64,000 nt of DNA from a phage. This document shows positions 4,093 through 44,835 of the stretch, piece after piece. The stretch lies in sequence record PX880099.1. The stretch is one strand, 5' to 3'. The position numbers and the translations under genes were made by a program. Positions within the stretch are counted from its first letter, which is position 1; every line of letters starts with the position of its first letter. The notes under the pieces are model-generated. The model was not told the origin of the DNA. It saw nothing but the letters and a program-made list of their open reading frames with translations, and ran no database searches.

Positions 4093-4446
4093 TTAGTTTA
4101 CATCGTTTAGAGCATTACCAATCTTTAAGATAATAACATCGTTAAGGGCTTCTTCTCCATTAAGGCCAGAGAAAGCAGGAGTAACGAAAGTTACCATATA
4201 ATAATGGTCTTCTTGTAGGATTGCGATAACGCCGTCTAGTTTAACATCTCCTGTGAAACGAAAAACTTTCAACTTTTGTTCTAAAGGAAGATCTCCTTCA
4301 ACATTTAAAACCATATCTCCAACACCAAACTTTTCTGCCCCGATGTAGATGTAAGCTTGGTCCTCTTTTTTATGATAATACAGTGTTGCTTGTTTGTCTT
4401 GTAGTGTTGTGATACCAAACACATCTACATCAATAATATTTTTCAA
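4093..4446 (-). CDS. hypothetical protein (probable TTG start)
   Basis: Track ORF 4093-4503 overlaps upstream gene by 61 nt; GGAGGAG followed by TTG at 4444-4446 gives a TTGA-coupled start. Confidence 0.4.
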   Translation of the reverse strand: MKNIIDVDVFGITTLQDKQATLYYHKKEDQAYIYIGAEKFGVGDMVLNVEGDLPLEQKLKVFRFTGDVKLDGVIAILQEDHYYMVTFVTPAFSGLNGEEALNDVIILKIGNALNDVN

Positions 4447-4811
4447 AAATTCTCCTCCCAAATCCAATAATTGTCTACATAAGTAGGATGCCTTTTGTCC
4501 CACTCTTTTCTAGCCCAAGCCACGGCTGCTATCAATACATCTCCATGACAAGGTTGAGGGGAGCAGAAGCAAACTAAATCTTTCCCTTCTAGCTCTAATA
4601 AATCTTCAAGAGTGATCTTACCACAACGAATTTGCTCCCACAACCACTCTTTATACCTTTGTATAGTTGATCCTCGTGGTTCATCATCTTTTAACTTAAA
4701 AGGGTTTGCAAACTTGGAGGCTTTTAGTCCCATATGTGGCATTGCTCTACCAATATAAACAGCACCTTCTGGGATTGTTTTGCCTAAATGGTAAAAGTTT
4801 AATACCTTCAT
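4443..4811 (-). CDS. DUF4326-family protein
   Basis: 122 aa; VYIGR...ANPF...CFCSPQPCHGDVL pattern typical of DUF4326. Confidence 0.65.
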   Translation of the reverse strand: MKVLNFYHLGKTIPEGAVYIGRAMPHMGLKASKFANPFKLKDDEPRGSTIQRYKEWLWEQIRCGKITLEDLLELEGKDLVCFCSPQPCHGDVLIAAVAWARKEWDKRHPTYVDNYWIWEENF

Positions 4812-9357: not shown

Positions 9358-9710
9358 AAATTGTACACGATGAAATTCAAATAGAAGAAAGTGACCTGAT
9401 GGATTTGGATGCAGCTTTGGGGAAGGTAATCTATGCAGGAATTAAAGCCTTCCGTGAGAAGGCAAACAATAGCACGTTTGTCATGATCCCCACTAAACTG
9501 ATGCGTGTTTTGTATCCAAATAGAAGTGCGCCGTATACAGATGAAGAAGAGGAGACAGGTAGAAGAGAGTGGTTAAATATTTTAGAAAAGATGGAGAATG
9601 CTTTTATTGATAGTGGTAATCCAGAAATCGTGTATACTGAAGATCAAAGGAAGGCACGGTTAGAGGGCCGTCTTTTATTCGCTAGTTATTTTGATAATCT
9701 TTGGAGCTAA
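9354..9710 (+). CDS. hypothetical protein
   Basis: 118 aa ORF, ATGA overlap with upstream stop. Confidence 0.5.
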   Translation: MKIVHDEIQIEESDLMDLDAALGKVIYAGIKAFREKANNSTFVMIPTKLMRVLYPNRSAPYTDEEEETGRREWLNILEKMENAFIDSGNPEIVYTEDQRKARLEGRLLFASYFDNLWS

Positions 9711-14451: not shown

Positions 14452-14990
14452 GAATAACTGATGAATATGTATTCTTCTTTTCACATAAAGATGTGTTTAG
14501 TAATTGGTATATTGCACCCTTTACAGAAACTGAACCAGGTTACAATGAGACTTTCTGTTGTGTTGAGCAATATATGATGTGGCGTAAGGCTTTGCTGTTC
14601 AAGGATCATGCGATTGCAGCAGCTATCCTTGATCACTCAACTATACGTGACAACGAGAGGAAACAAGCATACTACAAACGTATGGGTCGAGCGGTATCTG
14701 GTTTTAATAATGATATGTGGGAAGAGAACCGTGAGCGTATTGTTATGCGAGGCTTATGCTTGAAATATGTACAGAATCCAGATTTGTATGCAGACTTACA
14801 CCTTTACCAATACAAAACGTTTGTTGAAGCAAATCCTTACGATAAGGTTTACGGTATTGGAATGGGAATGTATGAACCAGGGGTGCTAAACCCTGCTACC
14901 TGGAAAGGGCAGAATCTTTTAGGCAAATATCATAATAAACTGATCGAAATACTTTTCCCAGACAAAATACCGCAAAGACGATATTTGTGA
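14448..14990 (+). CDS. NADAR-domain (YbiA/DUF1768-like) protein, candidate ADP-ribose-processing enzyme
   Basis: 180 aa; FFFSHKDVFSNWYIAPF, CVEQYMMWRKALLF, W..NRERIVMRGLCLKY.QNPDL, GIGMG...W.GQNLLGK match the NADAR pattern. Confidence 0.7.
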   Translation: MRITDEYVFFFSHKDVFSNWYIAPFTETEPGYNETFCCVEQYMMWRKALLFKDHAIAAAILDHSTIRDNERKQAYYKRMGRAVSGFNNDMWEENRERIVMRGLCLKYVQNPDLYADLHLYQYKTFVEANPYDKVYGIGMGMYEPGVLNPATWKGQNLLGKYHNKLIEILFPDKIPQRRYL

Positions 14991-15233
14991 TATTTTAACT
15001 TTTTTCATTTTTAGAACAAAGGTGTCACTTTGTAGCACAGAAATAAGGCTCCTACAGCACCGTAGAGAGCCTGTTATTTTGTCCTATACAAACCCTTGTC
15101 TTTTTCAGTTTGCATCACTAGGATTCGATCTGAGTGGGTTCCTGAAGGTTTACCAATAAGATTAAAGGTTATATCAAATTCCCACTATCTTTTATCTCAA
15201 AAATCCCTCAAATTATTTAAACTTTTTAAGAAT

Positions 15234-15418
15234 TTACAAAAGTGAAAGTTGAAAACCAAAATTTAAAGTTTAGGAAAATTATCTTAAAATGTTAGATACA
15301 AAACAAAACTCAAAAGTCAAGGAAAATTTTAAAAATTTTGCGCGCCCACAGTATTTAAAGTTTTTTTGCTTTTACAAAAATGAAAGTACAAAAGCAAAAT
15401 TTAAAGTTTACAAAAATT
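15234..15418. repeat. pair of about 48-bp direct repeats (15234-15280 and 15371-15418) in an AT-rich non-coding region
   Basis: TTTACAAAAGTGAAAGTTGAAAACCAAAATTTAAAGTTTAGGAAAATT vs TTTACAAAAATGAAAGTACAAAAGCAAAATTTAAAGTTTACAAAAATT. Confidence 0.6.
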
Positions 15419-15433
15419 TTTATGCAGGTGAAA

Positions 15434-15548
15434 ATGAGAAGAGTTCTCATATGGAAATGCAAATGATAATGATTCGCATTTAAGTTTATAAATGAGATTG
15501 ATTCTTATTTAATAAGGTAAATGACAATCATTCTCATTTAGAGAATGA
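15434..15548. promoter_or_regulatory. cluster of palindromic hairpin or operator-like sites built on ATGAGAA/TTCTCAT and AATGAnAAT..ATTCTCAT (Fur-box-like)
   Basis: ATGAGAA-GAG-TTCTCAT (15434-15450), AAATGC-N15-GCATTT (15455-15481), TCATTCTC-ATTTA-GAGAATGA (15528-15548). Confidence 0.45.
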
Positions 15549-15761
15549 CGCGCAGGGGCGGTGTTTGTCTCGCGCTCCCGTGTCCACTCGCCATGTAATA
15601 AGAATAACAGATCCAGCCAGGAAAGCAAGCGATTATTTTATCTTTACATTTCTTTACAAATATATAGCACCCAGCCTACCGGCGATCAACCTTCCAACCA
15701 GTGCCCCCTGGTATGTTAGCCCCGCCTTTACGCCGTGGGGTGGCGCTTCCTCTTCTGTATG
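15541..15761 (-). ncRNA. candidate structured non-coding transcript from a GC-rich island
   Basis: Strong minus-strand promoter at 15768-15796, then about 220 nt of GC-rich sequence with several short stems and no ORF of 60 aa or more on that strand. Confidence 0.25.
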
Positions 15762-15767
15762 TAAAAC

Positions 15768-15796
15768 AGTATAAGCCCGATCCCTGGGCTTGTCAA
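15768..15796 (-). promoter_or_regulatory. sigma70-type promoter on minus strand (TTGACA-17-TATACT)
   Basis: Reverse complement reads TTGACAAGCCCAGGGATCGGGCTTATACT. Confidence 0.5.
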
Positions 15797-15798
15797 GA

Positions 15799-16065
15799 TT
15801 ATTTTTTGTTTTCTTGCCAGGATAGGACACCTAACCAAAAATACATATCGCCCCGCGCCCCTGGTGGTATCTTGCTTTCCCCGCCGCCACTGCAAGCCCA
15901 TAGATAACCATTTGCGAACGTATCAAAATGATCTATCTCTTCCACCTTATGATCGCCCAGGTTGAGAACGGTTTCAACCTTTAAGCCCGTTGCGCTTGCT
16001 ACCTGGTGCACCGTGCCGCCTTGCCAGCCCAATGAGTGCATAAGGTGTAATGTAGTATTTGTCAT
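15799..16065 (-). CDS. hypothetical protein (GC-rich, compositionally atypical)
   Basis: 88 aa ORF with upstream minus-strand TTGCTA-17-TATTAT promoter and a GCGCC..GGCGC hairpin in the leader. Confidence 0.35.
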   Translation of the reverse strand: MTNTTLHLMHSLGWQGGTVHQVASATGLKVETVLNLGDHKVEEIDHFDTFANGYLWACSGGGESKIPPGARGDMYFWLGVLSWQENKK

Positions 16066-16173
16066 GATATCGCCCTTTCTTTGTTGTGCGCCCTGGTTGG
16101 CGCGGTAGAAAGATAATAGCCCTTTTCTTTATATATAGCAAGCAAAAAGAAAATAAAAAAGATTGAAAAATGG

Positions 16174-16230
16174 TTGACGTTAACCAGGCGGCGGCGTAGT
16201 ATTCATCTTGTAGGGCGGCAATGGTGCCGC
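16174..16230 (+). promoter_or_regulatory. PeSL-like cassette 1: early promoter plus GC hairpin
   Basis: TTGACG-N17-TAGTAT, then GCGGCA-ATGG-TGCCGC. Confidence 0.6.
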
Positions 16231-16251
16231 TCACTATTTGGAGTTAAGATC

Positions 16252-16449
16252 ATGGCAACATTGCACATTGTGGCGAAAGCTGGACAAATCAACGTAGTGG
16301 TAAACGGTTTTACTGAGTTCAGTCACCCCCAGGATGATCATGAAACGGTTTTATCTTTCATTGATTCCCTGTTAGAAATGGGAGTCATTACAGAAGACCA
16401 GCACGCTACAAAATGCAAGCGCGTTAATCAAATTGTAGGAATAGAATAA
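16252..16449 (+). CDS. small early protein
   Basis: 65 aa; start at ATG (MATLHIV); track extension is read-through of the hairpin. Confidence 0.5.
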   Translation: MATLHIVAKAGQINVVVNGFTEFSHPQDDHETVLSFIDSLLEMGVITEDQHATKCKRVNQIVGIE

Positions 16450-16455
16450 AAAGTA

Positions 16456-16515
16456 TTGACAACAAACAACAACCTGATAAGATGTATCACATAGGGCGGC
16501 GGAATGGTCCACCGC
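16456..16515 (+). promoter_or_regulatory. PeSL-like cassette 2
   Basis: TTGACA-16-TAAGAT, hairpin GCGGCGG-AATGGT-CCACCGC, conserved leader CACAACAGAAGAGAGATTATCA. Confidence 0.65.
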
Positions 16516-22811: not shown

Positions 22812-22867
22812 TTGACAAGTCCGCCTAGTCTGATAATATGTATCTTGTAGGGCGGCAATGGTGCCGC
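22812..22867 (+). promoter_or_regulatory. PeSL-like cassette 18
   Basis: TTGACA-16-TAATAT, hairpin GCGGCA-ATGG-TGCCGC. Confidence 0.65.
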
Positions 22868-26108: not shown

Positions 26109-26477
26109 ATGAGCAAATCAGCAATTAAAGCACTTGAAAAAGCACAAGAAGTGATCGCAACGTCAACCACTGGCGCAAAGGTTAATCTCGTTTGTTATCT
26201 GACAGATGAAACTATCCGTAAAAATTGGCGTAATGCTGATTTACTGGCTTGCTTATTGATTAATAGTGTCGCTAATGCTTTCCAGTGTGAAACAGCCGAG
26301 AGCCTGGAGGAAAACTTGTTTGATAATATGGATCAAGCCATTGAAACCTATATACAATCAAACCTGGATAGCTGGAACAGTAAAACATGGCCCGACAATT
26401 TACGCGATACAACTGATCAACTGATCCGCCTTGCCCTGATGGTTGAACGCGATAACGTTTACAACAGCACAAAGTAA
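26109..26477 (+). CDS. small early protein
   Basis: 122 aa ORF, SD AAGAGGAAAA. Confidence 0.55.
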   Translation: MSKSAIKALEKAQEVIATSTTGAKVNLVCYLTDETIRKNWRNADLLACLLINSVANAFQCETAESLEENLFDNMDQAIETYIQSNLDSWNSKTWPDNLRDTTDQLIRLALMVERDNVYNSTK

Positions 26478-26507: not shown

Positions 26508-26542
26508 AACGTAAAGAAATGTAAATAATGCGCTATCCCCTA

Positions 26543-26616: not shown

Positions 26617-27036
26617 ATGAACATTAAATCAAATAATCCAGCTTACTCCTTCGATAACGCTTTTTGTCACGGTAGCGCCGCCAAAGGCTTCGAAATCGAT
26701 GGTAAATTGGTTATCGTGAACGTTGACGGGGAAGAGGTTGCAGTGTATCCGGTAAACGATGTTAAAAGCCGTTTACAATGCCGCATGGATGTTACCGCAT
26801 ATCAGCTTGATCCGGTCCGTGTAGTTGCCTTGGTGTTAGAGGAAGAGATCAAAGCAATGCATCACAGTAATAAGTTTATTGGTGACGCGCAGGATAATAT
26901 GAACGTTTGCCGCCATAAAGTTAATGAAGCATTGAAAGAATGCGGTTTTAAGGATCTGATGATTAAACGTGATGAAAAATTCCGCTTTCGTAATGACCTG
27001 GCAAACCGGATCTACTCAATCTATGAAGCGTTATAA
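26617..27036 (+). CDS. hypothetical protein
   Basis: 139 aa ORF, SD AAAGGACAA. Confidence 0.55.
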   Translation: MNIKSNNPAYSFDNAFCHGSAAKGFEIDGKLVIVNVDGEEVAVYPVNDVKSRLQCRMDVTAYQLDPVRVVALVLEEEIKAMHHSNKFIGDAQDNMNVCRHKVNEALKECGFKDLMIKRDEKFRFRNDLANRIYSIYEAL

Positions 27037-27051
27037 TTGACAACAAAACAA

Positions 27052-27077
27052 GGGCGCACCAAGCGCCCTTTCTTTTT
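27052..27077 (+). terminator. rho-independent terminator
   Basis: GGGCGC-ACCAA-GCGCCC followed by TTTCTTTTT; closes the PeSL gene cluster. Confidence 0.65.
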
Positions 27078-27283
27078 GCCCGAACAATATTGATAGCTTT
27101 CGCCTATGAAAAACCGACACAGAACAAAACTGAATAAATCGCGGTATCGAGCTAATCAACCAGCAAACGAATAACCATACCTCCCAGGGTTACAGGCTGT
27201 TAGAGAGCCATTTAGAGCGGTTAAAATCGATCAACAACCAACAACAAACCATCAAAAACACCCTTTTACCTCCTTTCTAGTGC

Positions 27284-27302
27284 AATGATAACCATTATCA
27301 TC
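27284..27302. promoter_or_regulatory. near-consensus Fur-box-like site
   Basis: AATGATAACCATTATCATC, 15 of 16 positions match the core of GATAATGATAATCATTATC. Confidence 0.4.
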
Positions 27303-28037
27303 TACCCATGATTATCTATGCAATATAAGCGCATAATTATAATGTTGATAATAGTTCGCAACAACTAACCAACAAACAACATAAAACAATAAGCAAACTA
27401 ATCATAATCAAAGGAATAATAGCAAGATGATTGATAACGACAAACAATCAAACCATGATGAATACTAAGCAAGATAACGATAACACGACAAAACAACCAA
27501 CTAACGAACAATAACAAACGAAACCATTAAAATAATAACTATTAGCAAAATAGTGCATGAATGAAATCATTACAAAACGAATCATTCATAGAGTCATCAT
27601 TAGCACGCTATGCCGGACACATAGCGAGCTAATAATAAGCCAACTACACCCCAACAATCATAACCATCGGTGATGGTTATTTCTTGTTACTGCGTAGCTT
27701 GCAATAATTGCAAGCGTAATGACGCTTACACTTATTGCGCTGGCTTATTATTAGCATTATATGTAATTACCAAGATCATAACATTAGCGCAATAACAATA
27801 ATCATTGTGGTAATTACGTAAGGAAACAATTAGCATGGCAATAATTATGGGGGCAATGGGAGGATGATTATCATCATTCCGATACATTGCACACTATGCA
27901 CATAATAGAATAAAAAGCAATAATTTTGGGGGCGAAATGTTACCGCCACAGGCGGGAATGTTGAGCAAGTTCTCTTAAACGTAAATAAAATCAGAATAAT
28001 CTTGATTTATTTTAGTTTTTATGTTAATAAACGTTTA

Positions 28038-28056
28038 AATAATAATCATTCTCATA
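28038..28056. promoter_or_regulatory. AATGAnAAT..ATTCTCAT motif copy
   Basis: AATAATAATCATTCTCATA. Confidence 0.35.
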
Positions 28057-28215
28057 TAAATAATAGTCTGCTTGTCATGAGCGGGATTAGTTGACAATGT
28101 TCCGTCATATGATGAGGTTGCCAAGCCATTGATAAATAAGTGTTTGTGTGATTTATAATCAGGTGGCCCACCTTGTCGCTATGTTGGCATGAGCCTTGCA
28201 TAAGTCATTGAATAC

Positions 28216-28236
28216 GAATGATAATTATTCTCATTC
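28216..28236. promoter_or_regulatory. palindromic AATGAnAAT..ATTCTCAT motif copy
   Basis: GAATGA-TAATTATTC-TCATTC. Confidence 0.4.
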
Positions 28237-28576
28237 GCATGATATTTGGGAATTGTCGCTGCGTGGACCTGACGGCCCGAAAATTCGCGTTAAGCACTTC
28301 TTACGTATGCACCATGATTTTTGCCATATCATATTGATTCTATTAGATATTCTTGCCATGATTGCCATGAAACAGGGTGTCCCGAAATAATCTCTCCCCG
28401 TAGATATTTTGGGTTACTTTTTATACAAGAGTGGGGTGTCAAAAATAATCGGTATATATGGGATAATTGATAGGAATCCCCTATGATAATTCGATTGTAA
28501 TTCCCTAAGATTGATCGTATGATGTTGGTGATTAATGATTGCCATGAAAGATGGCTAACGATGAGAGGAGATTATC

Positions 28577-28951
28577 ATGCAAGAGAGTAAAAATGTTCCG
28601 TTGAGCAGTGCAACATTGCTTCGCTTCTATAAAGCATGGATTGCCAACTATCCTGCAATGAATCGCACAACGAGTGGCTTATGTGGTTGTCTGGTAGATT
28701 ATGTAGATGATTTTGTTGGTGAGACAACTAGAGAAGAAGATAGAAGATGGCGTGATCATTTGTTGGACCGTTTGAAATATGAAATGAGGAAACAATTTAC
28801 ATGTGCAGGGTTGGACTACAATCTTCCGTTCAATGCAGATTGCATGGATTACCTTTCAGAGTGTATAAACTTGGCGTGTCATACCAACACGTTACGTCTT
28901 CAATGGGTGAAAGACAGAATTGAAGATGCAAATAATGCTTGCATTGAATAA
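28577..28951 (+). CDS. paralog family A member 1
   Basis: FYKAWI...GLCGCL...NLPF...RLQWVKDRI shared with four other genes. Confidence 0.6.
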   Translation: MQESKNVPLSSATLLRFYKAWIANYPAMNRTTSGLCGCLVDYVDDFVGETTREEDRRWRDHLLDRLKYEMRKQFTCAGLDYNLPFNADCMDYLSECINLACHTNTLRLQWVKDRIEDANNACIE

Positions 28952-44575: not shown

Positions 44576-44835
44576 GCCATCCGTCAATATTTTTCTGTTT
44601 TGTAGATCTTGAAAACGAGTCTTTAATCGTTGATAGTGAGGGTTACTTCACTTATTGGGAATCCGAGCACGAAACTATAAGTGTAGTGAAAGAAATTATG
44701 CAAACCAATCCAAGCCTACCAGCGCATAAGTACGGTATTGCAAAAGTGTTTGTTACTAAAACAGAGTACACAAAAGAGCGAAGCACTTTGTACCATAATA
44801 TTGAAGTGATTCACTATTTCAAAGATGTTATTTAG
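44572..44835 (+). CDS. hypothetical protein
   Basis: 87 aa ORF, ATGA-coupled. Confidence 0.5.
   Translation: MSHPSIFFCFVDLENESLIVDSEGYFTYWESEHETISVVKEIMQTNPSLPAHKYGIAKVFVTKTEYTKERSTLYHNIEVIHYFKDVI

Follow-up and report, generated by a model that had tools for sequence, protein, structure and literature searches.

The stretch of DNA analysed here, 64,000 nucleotides (nt) of record PX880099.1 and hereafter the window, belongs to a phAPEC8-like Phapecoctavirus of the subfamily Stephanstirmvirinae. Its subject is a non-coding locus beginning at position 14991, in which four copies of a 21-base-pair (bp) palindrome stand between a set of AT-rich direct repeats and two leftward promoters. Between 14400 and 16300 the window shares 99.9% identity with Escherichia phage vB_EcoM-Ro121lw and 94-99% with phAPEC8 and related phages. 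On the left a plus-strand gene stops at 14990, and the first well-supported gene beyond the locus is an 88-amino-acid open reading frame (ORF) on the minus strand (15799-16065) that is a member of a PHROG family, leaving about 800 bp between the flanking genes without a credible gene. Nearby genes either have no known function or are NADAR-like or endonuclease genes. A GC-rich hairpin just inside the locus terminates the upstream plus-strand operon and likely also marks the far end of leftward transcripts. The features are collected in Table 1.

Table 1. Sequence features of the non-coding locus and of the second non-coding region of the window (positions are those of the window)
Feature	Position	Strand	Evidence
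GC-rich hairpin GGCTCCTACAGCACCGTAGAGAGCC	15047-15071		Sequence, with T-rich tails on both strands; ARNold terminator annotated at the homologous phAPEC8 position
AT-rich direct repeat, copy 1 (72 nt)	15209-15280	+	Repeat-family search; blastn
Degenerate middle repeat copy	15297-15330	+	74% identity with the matching stretches of the two other copies
AT-rich direct repeat, copy 2 (72 nt)	15347-15418	+	82% identical to copy 1
Predicted Fur box 1, AAATGAGAAGAGTTCTCATAT	15432-15452		23.5 bits (phage-box matrix); 17.8 bits (E. coli-site matrix)
Predicted Fur box 2, AAATGATAATGATTCGCATTT	15461-15481		31.6 bits (phage-box); 24.4 bits (E. coli-site); two mismatches to TGATAATnATTATCA
Predicted Fur box 3, AAATGAGATTGATTCTTATTT	15490-15510		28.4 bits (phage-box); 22.4 bits (E. 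coli-site)
Predicted Fur box 4 (proximal), AAATGACAATCATTCTCATTT	15519-15539		30.7 bits (phage-box); 23.5 bits (E. coli-site)
P2 leader (ACAUGGCGAG...GAGACAAACACC...CUGCNCGUCAUUC), 55 nt, ending at box 4	15540-15594	-	Alignments
Promoter P2: -35 TTGCTT (15628 to 15623), 16-nt spacer, -10 TATTCT (15606 to 15601)	15601-15628	-	Conserved hexamers
Candidate CpxR-type box GTAAAGAAATGTAAA	15643-15657	-	Exact GTAAA-N5-GTAAA; 14 nt upstream of the P2 -35
P1 transcript 5' domain	15676-15761	-	Covariation; invariant stretch AAGGUnGAUCGCCGGUAG
Promoter P1: TTGACA-17 nt-TATACT	15768-15796	-	11/12 matches; 9-12/12 in all 26 homologues
Predicted isolated Fur box, second large non-coding region	27283-27303		19.2 bits (phage-box); 20.9 bits (E. 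coli-site)
Terminal-repeat equivalent segment (329 bp)	27964-28292		Schickermooser mapping; boxes at 28037-28057 and 28216-28236

Coding capacity was sought and not found. The sole ORF that runs across the repeats (15289-15483, 64 amino acids) is broken by stops or frameshifts in phAPEC8 (97.8% DNA identity), phiWec188 and phi92, which disposes of the suggestion, raised with a first-pass annotation of this DNA, that the repeats might be part of a small gene. Alignments of relatives likewise gave no conserved ORF in the core and leader, where indels shift the frame. Coding sequences called over the locus in related records (phAPEC8_00257, phAPEC8 4163-4504; ETECTG_CDS0001 and ETECTG_CDS0002, ETEC-TG 128-322 and 400-618) overlap the promoters, the leader and the palindromes; they are not conserved as ORFs and are probably spurious. 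No transfer RNA or transfer-messenger RNA gene was found in the window (a T-arm-like string at 15120-15140 led nowhere), Rfam 15 gave no match in the whole window at gathering score, and a search of 15400-15850 at expect values (E) up to 10 returned only chance-level hits.

Three short palindromes had been quoted in the first-pass annotation, ATGAGAA-GAG-TTCTCAT (15434-15450), AAATGC-N15-GCATTT (15455-15481) and TCATTCTC-ATTTA-GAGAATGA (15528-15548). All three are present, as pieces of, or flanks to, a single 21-bp imperfect palindrome (AAATGAnAATnATTnTCATTT; AAATGAnAAnnnTTnTCATTT) that occurs four times with a start-to-start spacing of exactly 29 bp. From 39 distinct copies at 15 loci, the window included, we derived a phage-box matrix whose consensus, AAATGAGAATCATTCTCATTT, is letter for letter the consensus published for the Xanthomonas box of Fur, the ferric uptake regulator (AATGAgAATcATTctCATT; PMC1790865). 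It differs from the 7-1-7 form of the Fur consensus, TGATAATnATTATCA, only at G/T and C/A positions that vary among the phage boxes themselves. The inverted repeat by which Fur sites are recognised, in its 19-bp form GATAATGATAATCATTATC or its 7-1-7 form, is found in the phage boxes; boxes 2 and 4 depart from the 7-1-7 motif at two positions each, and the copies at 28219 and 27286, in the second large non-coding region, at one each.

The likeness extends to prediction in both directions. When the phage-box matrix was run on 124 kilobases (kb) of E. coli K-12 sequence, eight of the nine top matches fell in known Fur-regulated promoter regions, although the five such regions in the sample (ryhB, fhuA, fepA-fes, fepD-entS and fepB-entC) make up less than 1% of it. 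The ninth, AATTGAGAATCATTCTGAATT (20.6 bits), lies in the map-rpsB intergenic region (44581-44601 of the K-12 segment) and was the only one outside the known Fur-regulated promoters examined. Conversely, with a matrix built from nothing but six of these E. coli sites, the seven window boxes took the first seven places in the 64 kb, at 17.8-24.4 bits. Seven sites in the window reached at least 19 bits with the phage-box matrix, compared with a mean of 0.045 and a maximum of 1 in shuffled windows, and 2000 shuffles of the AT-rich region yielded none. Weaker sites overlap the boxes at a 6-bp offset (15455/15461 and 28210/28216) and resemble natural Fur clusters in this respect.

The departures of the boxes from their consensus are asymmetric, with only 4 of 68 off-consensus symmetric position pairs still complementary, and the boxes are therefore better read as protein half-sites than as hairpins. 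RNA hairpins or intrinsic terminators were rejected on the same uncompensated deviations and on the absence of a U-tract in most relatives. ArgR, Zur, NrdR and NagC were also set aside as binders, since their half-site sequence or spacing is unsuitable and the Fur matrices fit; ArgR boxes are even-length TGAAT sites, and the interior of the Zur box differs. A tblastn search with E. coli Fur found no homologue in Stephanstirmvirinae, Vequintavirinae or T5-like records. With protein half-sites and no phage-encoded Fur homologue, the binder is most simply host Fur. We consider the palindromes very probably to be sites for this host regulator, each a predicted 21-bp 9-1-9 site that would take one Fur dimer. 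Of the options offered in the first-pass annotation, clustered binding sites for one regulator is the one that these cross-predicting matrices support, with host Fur as the predicted regulator.

It is highly improbable, in our view, that the boxes are bound instead by a phage-encoded dimeric protein and resemble Fur operators through mimicry or coincidence. In its favour, the AAA/TTT flanks and the preference for G at position 7 (0.69) are more uniform than in E. coli operators, and most genes of the neighbourhood are of unknown function. Against this, four lineages without relationship to one another (Stephanstirmvirinae, Vequintavirinae, Demerecviridae and Alcyoneusvirus) carry the motif and have an Enterobacterales host in common, phage-box and host-operator matrices predict each other's sites, and the three groups of records searched hold no Fur homologue.

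The locus is widely conserved. In distant blastn comparisons, 15490-15775 was kept at 70-75% identity across Vequintavirinae and Stephanstirmvirinae and was almost always unannotated. One to eight boxes were found at the same place in the 13 phage genomes examined, which represent at least seven genera and have hosts in Escherichia, Salmonella, Klebsiella, Cronobacter, Pectobacterium and Erwinia. The 29-bp spacing holds in 27 of 43 neighbouring pairs, and up to eight boxes stand in one array in phiWec188. In every relative the proximal box lies at a fixed distance from the conserved leader, and the alignment between the two is ungapped. A pattern scan of viral contigs with CCGGCGATNNACCTTNC gave mostly chance matches; nhmmer recovered 17 true core homologues from IMG/VR, 13 of them with boxes. 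Arrays of three or more boxes occurred in about 20 of 118 further viral contigs holding at least one box, and a search for the core in 5,426 E. coli genomes gave no match, on which ground its derivation from the host was rejected. Some records labelled as Campylobacter, Acinetobacter or Pseudomonas phages (e.g. MG065645, OP562383 and OR584014) are 77-97% identical to the homologous regions over the stretches compared, and their host labels look doubtful.

The first-pass annotation had also reasoned that the region lies between convergent genes and so is not a conventional promoter. This was misleading, as two sigma-70 promoters on the minus strand, P1 and P2, fire into the palindromes. The P1 hexamers are conserved in all 26 homologues around a spacer of variable sequence. 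In the window this 17-nt spacer (15774-15790) is a GC-rich inverted repeat, AGCCCAGGGATCGGGCT; a GC-rich and often palindromic spacer of other sequence is present in most of the 26, and it may be a terminator embedded in the promoter or a regulatory hairpin. P2, also with a variable spacer, was found in 22 of 26 sequences, and its start is predicted near 15594. Relative to P2 the boxes begin at +55, and relative to P1 at about +222. The P2 leader was rejected as an ORF, because indels shift its frame and the AUG is lost in CR9-type phages. A plus-strand, Fur-repressed promoter over the proximal box was sought as well and is absent from the window, which has GTAAAT at the -35 position. The proximal box of Vequintavirinae sits between weak opposite-strand hexamers (TTGAAT-18 nt-CAGAAT, 8/12 matches), and a box-embedded rightward promoter is plausible only in that subfamily.

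Upstream of P2 stands an exact GTAAA-N5-GTAAA motif. Its gap to the P2 -35 hexamer is either 5 nt or 14-15 nt across 22 sequences; these values are one helical turn apart, so the helical face is preserved. The motif carries little information: chance alone predicts 0.35 matches, and two were reached in 7 of 100 shuffles. From its sequence and its promoter-upstream placement on a fixed helical face, we regard it as a candidate CpxR box. The identical 15-mer GTAAAGAAATGTAAA is found again at 26511-26525 on the plus strand, 19 nt upstream of a TTGACA-17-TATATT promoter, and GTAAA-N5-GTAAA recurs in the early regions of a T5-like contig (L167, about 8530) and of the RaK2-like phage Muenster (1037, 1410, 2305 and 2539).

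The 5' domain of the P1 transcript showed signs of conserved structure. Its pairings comprise a CCC/GGG stem (15739-15737 with 15722-15720) and a hairpin (15715-15708 with 15701-15695). Across homologues the helix CCCC/GGGG is exchanged for CCAA/UUGG or CCAG/CUGG, and A-U pairs of the hairpin for G-C. Six pairs were compensated, giving a covariation score of 0.154 compared with 0.057 in shuffles (0 of 500 reached it) and at most 0.064 in slid controls. The fold of the single sequence was unremarkable (z = -1.55), wobble counts were level (2 vs 2), and RNAalifold alone produced only weak consensus structures. A single conserved RNA of 215 nt over the whole core had been considered and was revised after P2 and the GTAAA-N5-GTAAA box were found inside it. 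An apparent helix, GCUAU/AUAGC, shares positions with the P2 -10 hexamer, and its G-U bias (21 vs 4) was for that reason not trusted as evidence for the strand.

Read along the minus strand, the locus thus runs from P1 through the structured RNA domain, the CpxR-type box, P2, the 55-nt leader and the Fur boxes to about three repeats of about 70 bp and the terminator. We propose that the main function of the array is that of an iron-responsive Fur operator or roadblock, and we place the probability of this at roughly 50%. In an iron-replete cell, Fe2+-Fur dimers would sit on the array and stop host RNA polymerase coming from P1 and P2, such that leftward transcripts would end at the boxes; in Vequintavirinae, bound Fur may also occlude the weak box-embedded rightward promoter. 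When iron is scarce, Fur would depart and transcription would continue through the AT-rich repeats. Whatever read-through does would then become iron-dependent, the candidates being activation of the repeats or else an RNA of non-coding or antisense type, and the CpxR-type box would add an envelope-stress input. The sites, their conservation and spacing, the promoters and the absence of genes are observed, unlike the roadblock effect and its biological output, which we infer.

Several points weigh against an operator or roadblock. Occupancy of the boxes by Fur is a prediction from sequence only. Measured from the P2 start, the boxes stand 55-160 nt downstream, whereas a Fur repressor usually sits over the -35/-10 elements, and a roadblock role, plausible as it is, is not a standard Fur mechanism. 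As there is no conserved ORF, no product of read-through can be named. The array as such appears dispensable, since PVP-SE1, pEa55 and Av-05 have a single box at the locus. Two divergent environmental homologues from IMG/VR, L116 and L089, retain P1, the RNA domain and the AT-rich repeats, along with the conserved leader 3' end (…GUCAUUC); a search for P2 and the GTAAA box in them gave no match, and other repeated motifs (AGTTACTCACCGTGACTAAC; ACTATCACsCCyGAAA, three to four copies) occupy the place of the Fur boxes. This pattern suggests that the binding-site module is swapped with the host. Finally, the same boxes lie in terminal repeats, where a purely transcriptional role is less obvious and a role at the level of DNA (entry, packaging or replication) could be primary.

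The repeats beyond the array bring in a different explanation. The first-pass annotation had described two 48-bp direct repeats of about 85% identity. These are present as part of longer copies, 72 nt at 82% identity without gaps (blastn: 67 nt, 83.6%, E = 5e-12), to which a degenerate third copy must be added; with this middle copy included, the region amounts to about three units of about 69 bp. GC content is 20-26% over 15150-15550. All eight relatives examined have, in this position, two to three AT-rich direct repeats with a period of 63-78 bp, whose sequence is not the same in Stephanstirmvirinae as in Vequintavirinae. In the latter, each unit of about 70 bp carries a GATC-bearing palindrome (CTCGATCGAG), a palindrome of the TTTTCnAAAATCGAAAA type and an A6T6 tract. 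Dam sites are thereby clustered in the Vequintavirinae repeats, and those of Stephanstirmvirinae are without them.

Such an architecture invites comparison with a transcription-activated origin, in which P1 and P2 would fire into AT-rich unwinding or iteron repeats, the transcript would prime replication or open the DNA, and Fur, perhaps with CpxR, would gate initiation. We think this unlikely, if worth retaining. Two tandem conserved promoters do face the AT-rich region, the repeats recur in all eight relatives with a subfamily-specific sequence such as would be expected if they co-evolved with a phage protein, and the conserved structured 5' domain of the P1 RNA resembles primer RNAs. GATC-containing palindromes in the Vequintavirinae repeats and the conserved DnaA-box pairs that adjoin the T5 copies of the boxes point the same way. 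The origin option of the first-pass annotation has its support in architecture only; other expected signs are missing. No DnaA box (TTWTNCACA) occurs in 14991-16300 or 27000-28600, no replication initiator gene was recognised adjacent to the locus, and units of 70 bp are far longer than classical iterons. GC skew has no inflection at 15.5 kb. Its extremes fall near 8 kb, where the minimum coincides with a divergent gene switch, and near 46 kb; because it tracks the orientation of the genes, it is uninformative as a test for an origin. The sign of the control would also be wrong for a simple iron checkpoint: ribonucleotide reductase needs iron, and it is when iron is abundant that holo-Fur would block the priming transcript.

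The strength and number of the boxes bear on a further possibility, namely that they act as a sponge. Boxes on the replicating genome would titrate Fur, de-repress iron uptake and RyhB, and feed iron-requiring enzymes of the phage. All seven window boxes outscore natural E. coli operators even by the matrix made from E. coli sites alone (17.8-24.4 bits), each genome unit holds seven strong boxes, phiWec188 has its array of up to eight, and a copy number that ranges from 1 to 8 is what would be expected if dosage counted over geometry. A cell contains a few thousand Fur dimers, a number comparable to that of boxes multiplied by replicating genomes. We nevertheless judge a sponge to be quite unlikely. 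The proximal box is fixed beside the P2 leader and the 29-bp phasing is strict, both of which argue for a function in cis, and several phages have a single box at the locus. De-repression of the host would be pointless in T5-like phages, which destroy host DNA within minutes of infection, and the location of boxes in terminal repeats would be left unexplained.

That location was seen most clearly at 28 kb. The first-pass annotation had noted that the motif family recurs 12 kb away, and the recurrence is real, with boxes at 28037-28057 (27.3 bits with the phage-box matrix), 28216-28236 (30.4 bits) and 27283-27303. A comparison of the two non-coding regions found the boxes in common and no other significant similarity. 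In the close relative Schickermooser the first 329 bp are 100% identical to the last 329 bp and map to 27964-28292; its authors give the terminal repeat as 328 bp. As this segment of the window is the equivalent of a terminal repeat, the window spans a concatemer or circularised junction. Many GenBank records of the genus start or end at differing points of the 1.5-kb non-coding region 27060-28576. The suggestion of a packaging site or genome end consequently stands for 28037-28236 and fails for 14991-15548.

Comparable positions were found in other phages. In BME3, of another genus, a 342-bp terminal repeat defined by PhageTerm holds two boxes, and in the RaK2-like Klebsiella phage Muenster an array at 783-904 lies about 0.8 kb from the left end, within a 20-kb terminal repeat predicted by PhageTerm. 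The same order is found in RaK2 and Muenster, jumbo phages unrelated to this group: a GTAAA-N5-GTAAA box and a promoter (on the opposite strand in the RaK2-like phage) precede the Fur-box array by about 95 nt. The left end of Muenster also carries single boxes at 1075, 1302 and 2424 and many copies of the palindromic ACAGTACTG after boxes and promoters. In T5, three boxes (9472-9492, 9576-9596 and 9611-9631; 26.9, 34.4 and 27.9 bits with the phage-box matrix) coincide with palindromes E, G and I, together with direct repeat C, as annotated by Wang et al. 2005 (AY587007). They stand 30-190 bp left of the 7.9% nick, the boundary of first-step transfer, in Repeat Region 3 of the left terminal repeat, which is the presumed injection stop signal (Davison 2020, bioRxiv 10.1101/866236). 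That review of the T5 stop region proposes DnaA and makes no mention of Fur or iron (bioRxiv 10.1101/866236).

These positions would suit a DNA-level architectural element at genome ends or early borders, where a bound host protein would mark or arrest entering DNA or aid the recognition of ends for packaging or recombination. Boxes lie inside terminal repeats here (329 bp), in BME3 and at the left end of Muenster, and close to the T5 nick. The array at 15.4 kb is 12.4 kb from the right end, and the interval is filled by small plus-strand genes with repeated early-promoter leaders; the array would mark the inward limit of this early block of roughly 12 kb. We hold such an element to be very unlikely as the main function, because the array at 15.4 kb is itself not terminal, its tight link to the P2 leader is unaccounted for, these myoviruses are not known to inject their DNA stepwise, and no mechanism is at hand for a cytoplasmic repressor to halt the entry of DNA.

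The early block between the two non-coding regions has repeated elements of its own. A promoter-proximal, hairpin-capable leader, CTTGTAGGGCGGCAATGGTGCCGCTCAC, recurs where at least eight early transcription units begin (16205-16234; 17739, 18368, 19756, 21224, 21971, 22842 and 24449), and a related leader, CTCGTAGGGCGGCAATGACG, follows a promoter at about 8600 in the T5-like contig L167. A 15-mer, TGATAAGATGTATCA, recurs at 16475, 17912 and 21673, with one variant at 26321 and another at 22831 that continues into the leader copy of 22842.

Beyond the single locus, we tentatively raise a broader idea, which we regard as doubtful: that large virulent phages of Enterobacterales have in Fur-operator arrays a conserved cis-element that has so far gone unrecognised, placed at terminal repeats and early-region borders in at least four lineages (T5-like, phi92/phAPEC8-like, rV5/PVP-SE1-like and RaK2-like), with Fur used at the level of DNA. 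On that idea Fur could be the missing protein at the T5 injection stop, or an iron checkpoint on early transcription or replication, and the P1 transcript, which has no Rfam match, would represent a new phage RNA family. Phages of these groups appear to be wired to host iron status. If this is true, therapy candidates from the phAPEC8, phi92 and PVP-SE1 groups sense iron, which differs sharply between broth and infected tissue. The matter bears on the role of non-coding repeat regions in large phages and on the host factor at the T5 stop signal. It also exposes an unannotated, widely conserved locus of tandem promoters and structured RNA that annotations ignore or cover with spurious ORFs.

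Fur boxes are textbook material; a phased, near-consensus array in gene-free DNA of a virulent phage is not. Phage-carried boxes read by host Fur have a precedent in the stx1 promoter of lambdoid prophages, and multicopy Fur boxes can titrate Fur, as exploited in the Fur titration assay. The stx1 box differs in that a lone operator covers a cargo-gene promoter and the phage is temperate; the phages here are virulent and carry arrays, which lie in terminal repeats and a gene-free locus. The phage boxes share with Enterobacterales Fur operators (ryhB, fhuA, fepA-fes and entC-fepB) the 9-1-9 or 7-1-7 inverted repeat, the cross-prediction by matrices and the weaker sites overlapping at +6 bp. They differ in being closer to consensus than the operators tested, in belonging to a virulent phage and having no gene to regulate, in their position 55-160 nt downstream of a promoter, and in their arrangement as discrete 21-bp sites phased at 29 bp, where host clusters consist of sites overlapping at 3 or 6 bp over the -35/-10 elements. 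The CpxR-type box matches the exact consensus of CpxR-activated promoters, a motif type that we verified in the E. coli cpxP promoter, but the conserved block is longer in the phages (TTTGTAAAGAnnTGTAAAGA) and could belong to another factor.

The T7 primary origin, with its tandem promoters 1.1A/1.1B followed by an AT-rich stretch, T4 oriF and oriG, and ColE1 RNA II resemble the locus in having one or more promoters aimed at an AT-rich region; here there are two, one of them with a structured 5' RNA. Unlike those origins, the locus has host-factor boxes between promoters and repeats, repeat units of 70 bp and no skew signal. In the non-subscription literature searched, we found no paper linking Fur boxes to T5 or to non-coding regions of virulent phages. 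The closest described object is the set of T5 palindromes, to which no factor is assigned in those sources. In T5 Repeat Region 3 the boxes are 35-104 bp apart and lie beside DnaA-box pairs and the 7.9% nick, while the window array is internal, outside a terminal repeat and without DnaA boxes. The two regions are alike in being long, non-coding and filled with repeats, and they carry the same box sequence, to the point that window 15455-15509 matches the terminal repeats of T5-like phages directly by blastn.

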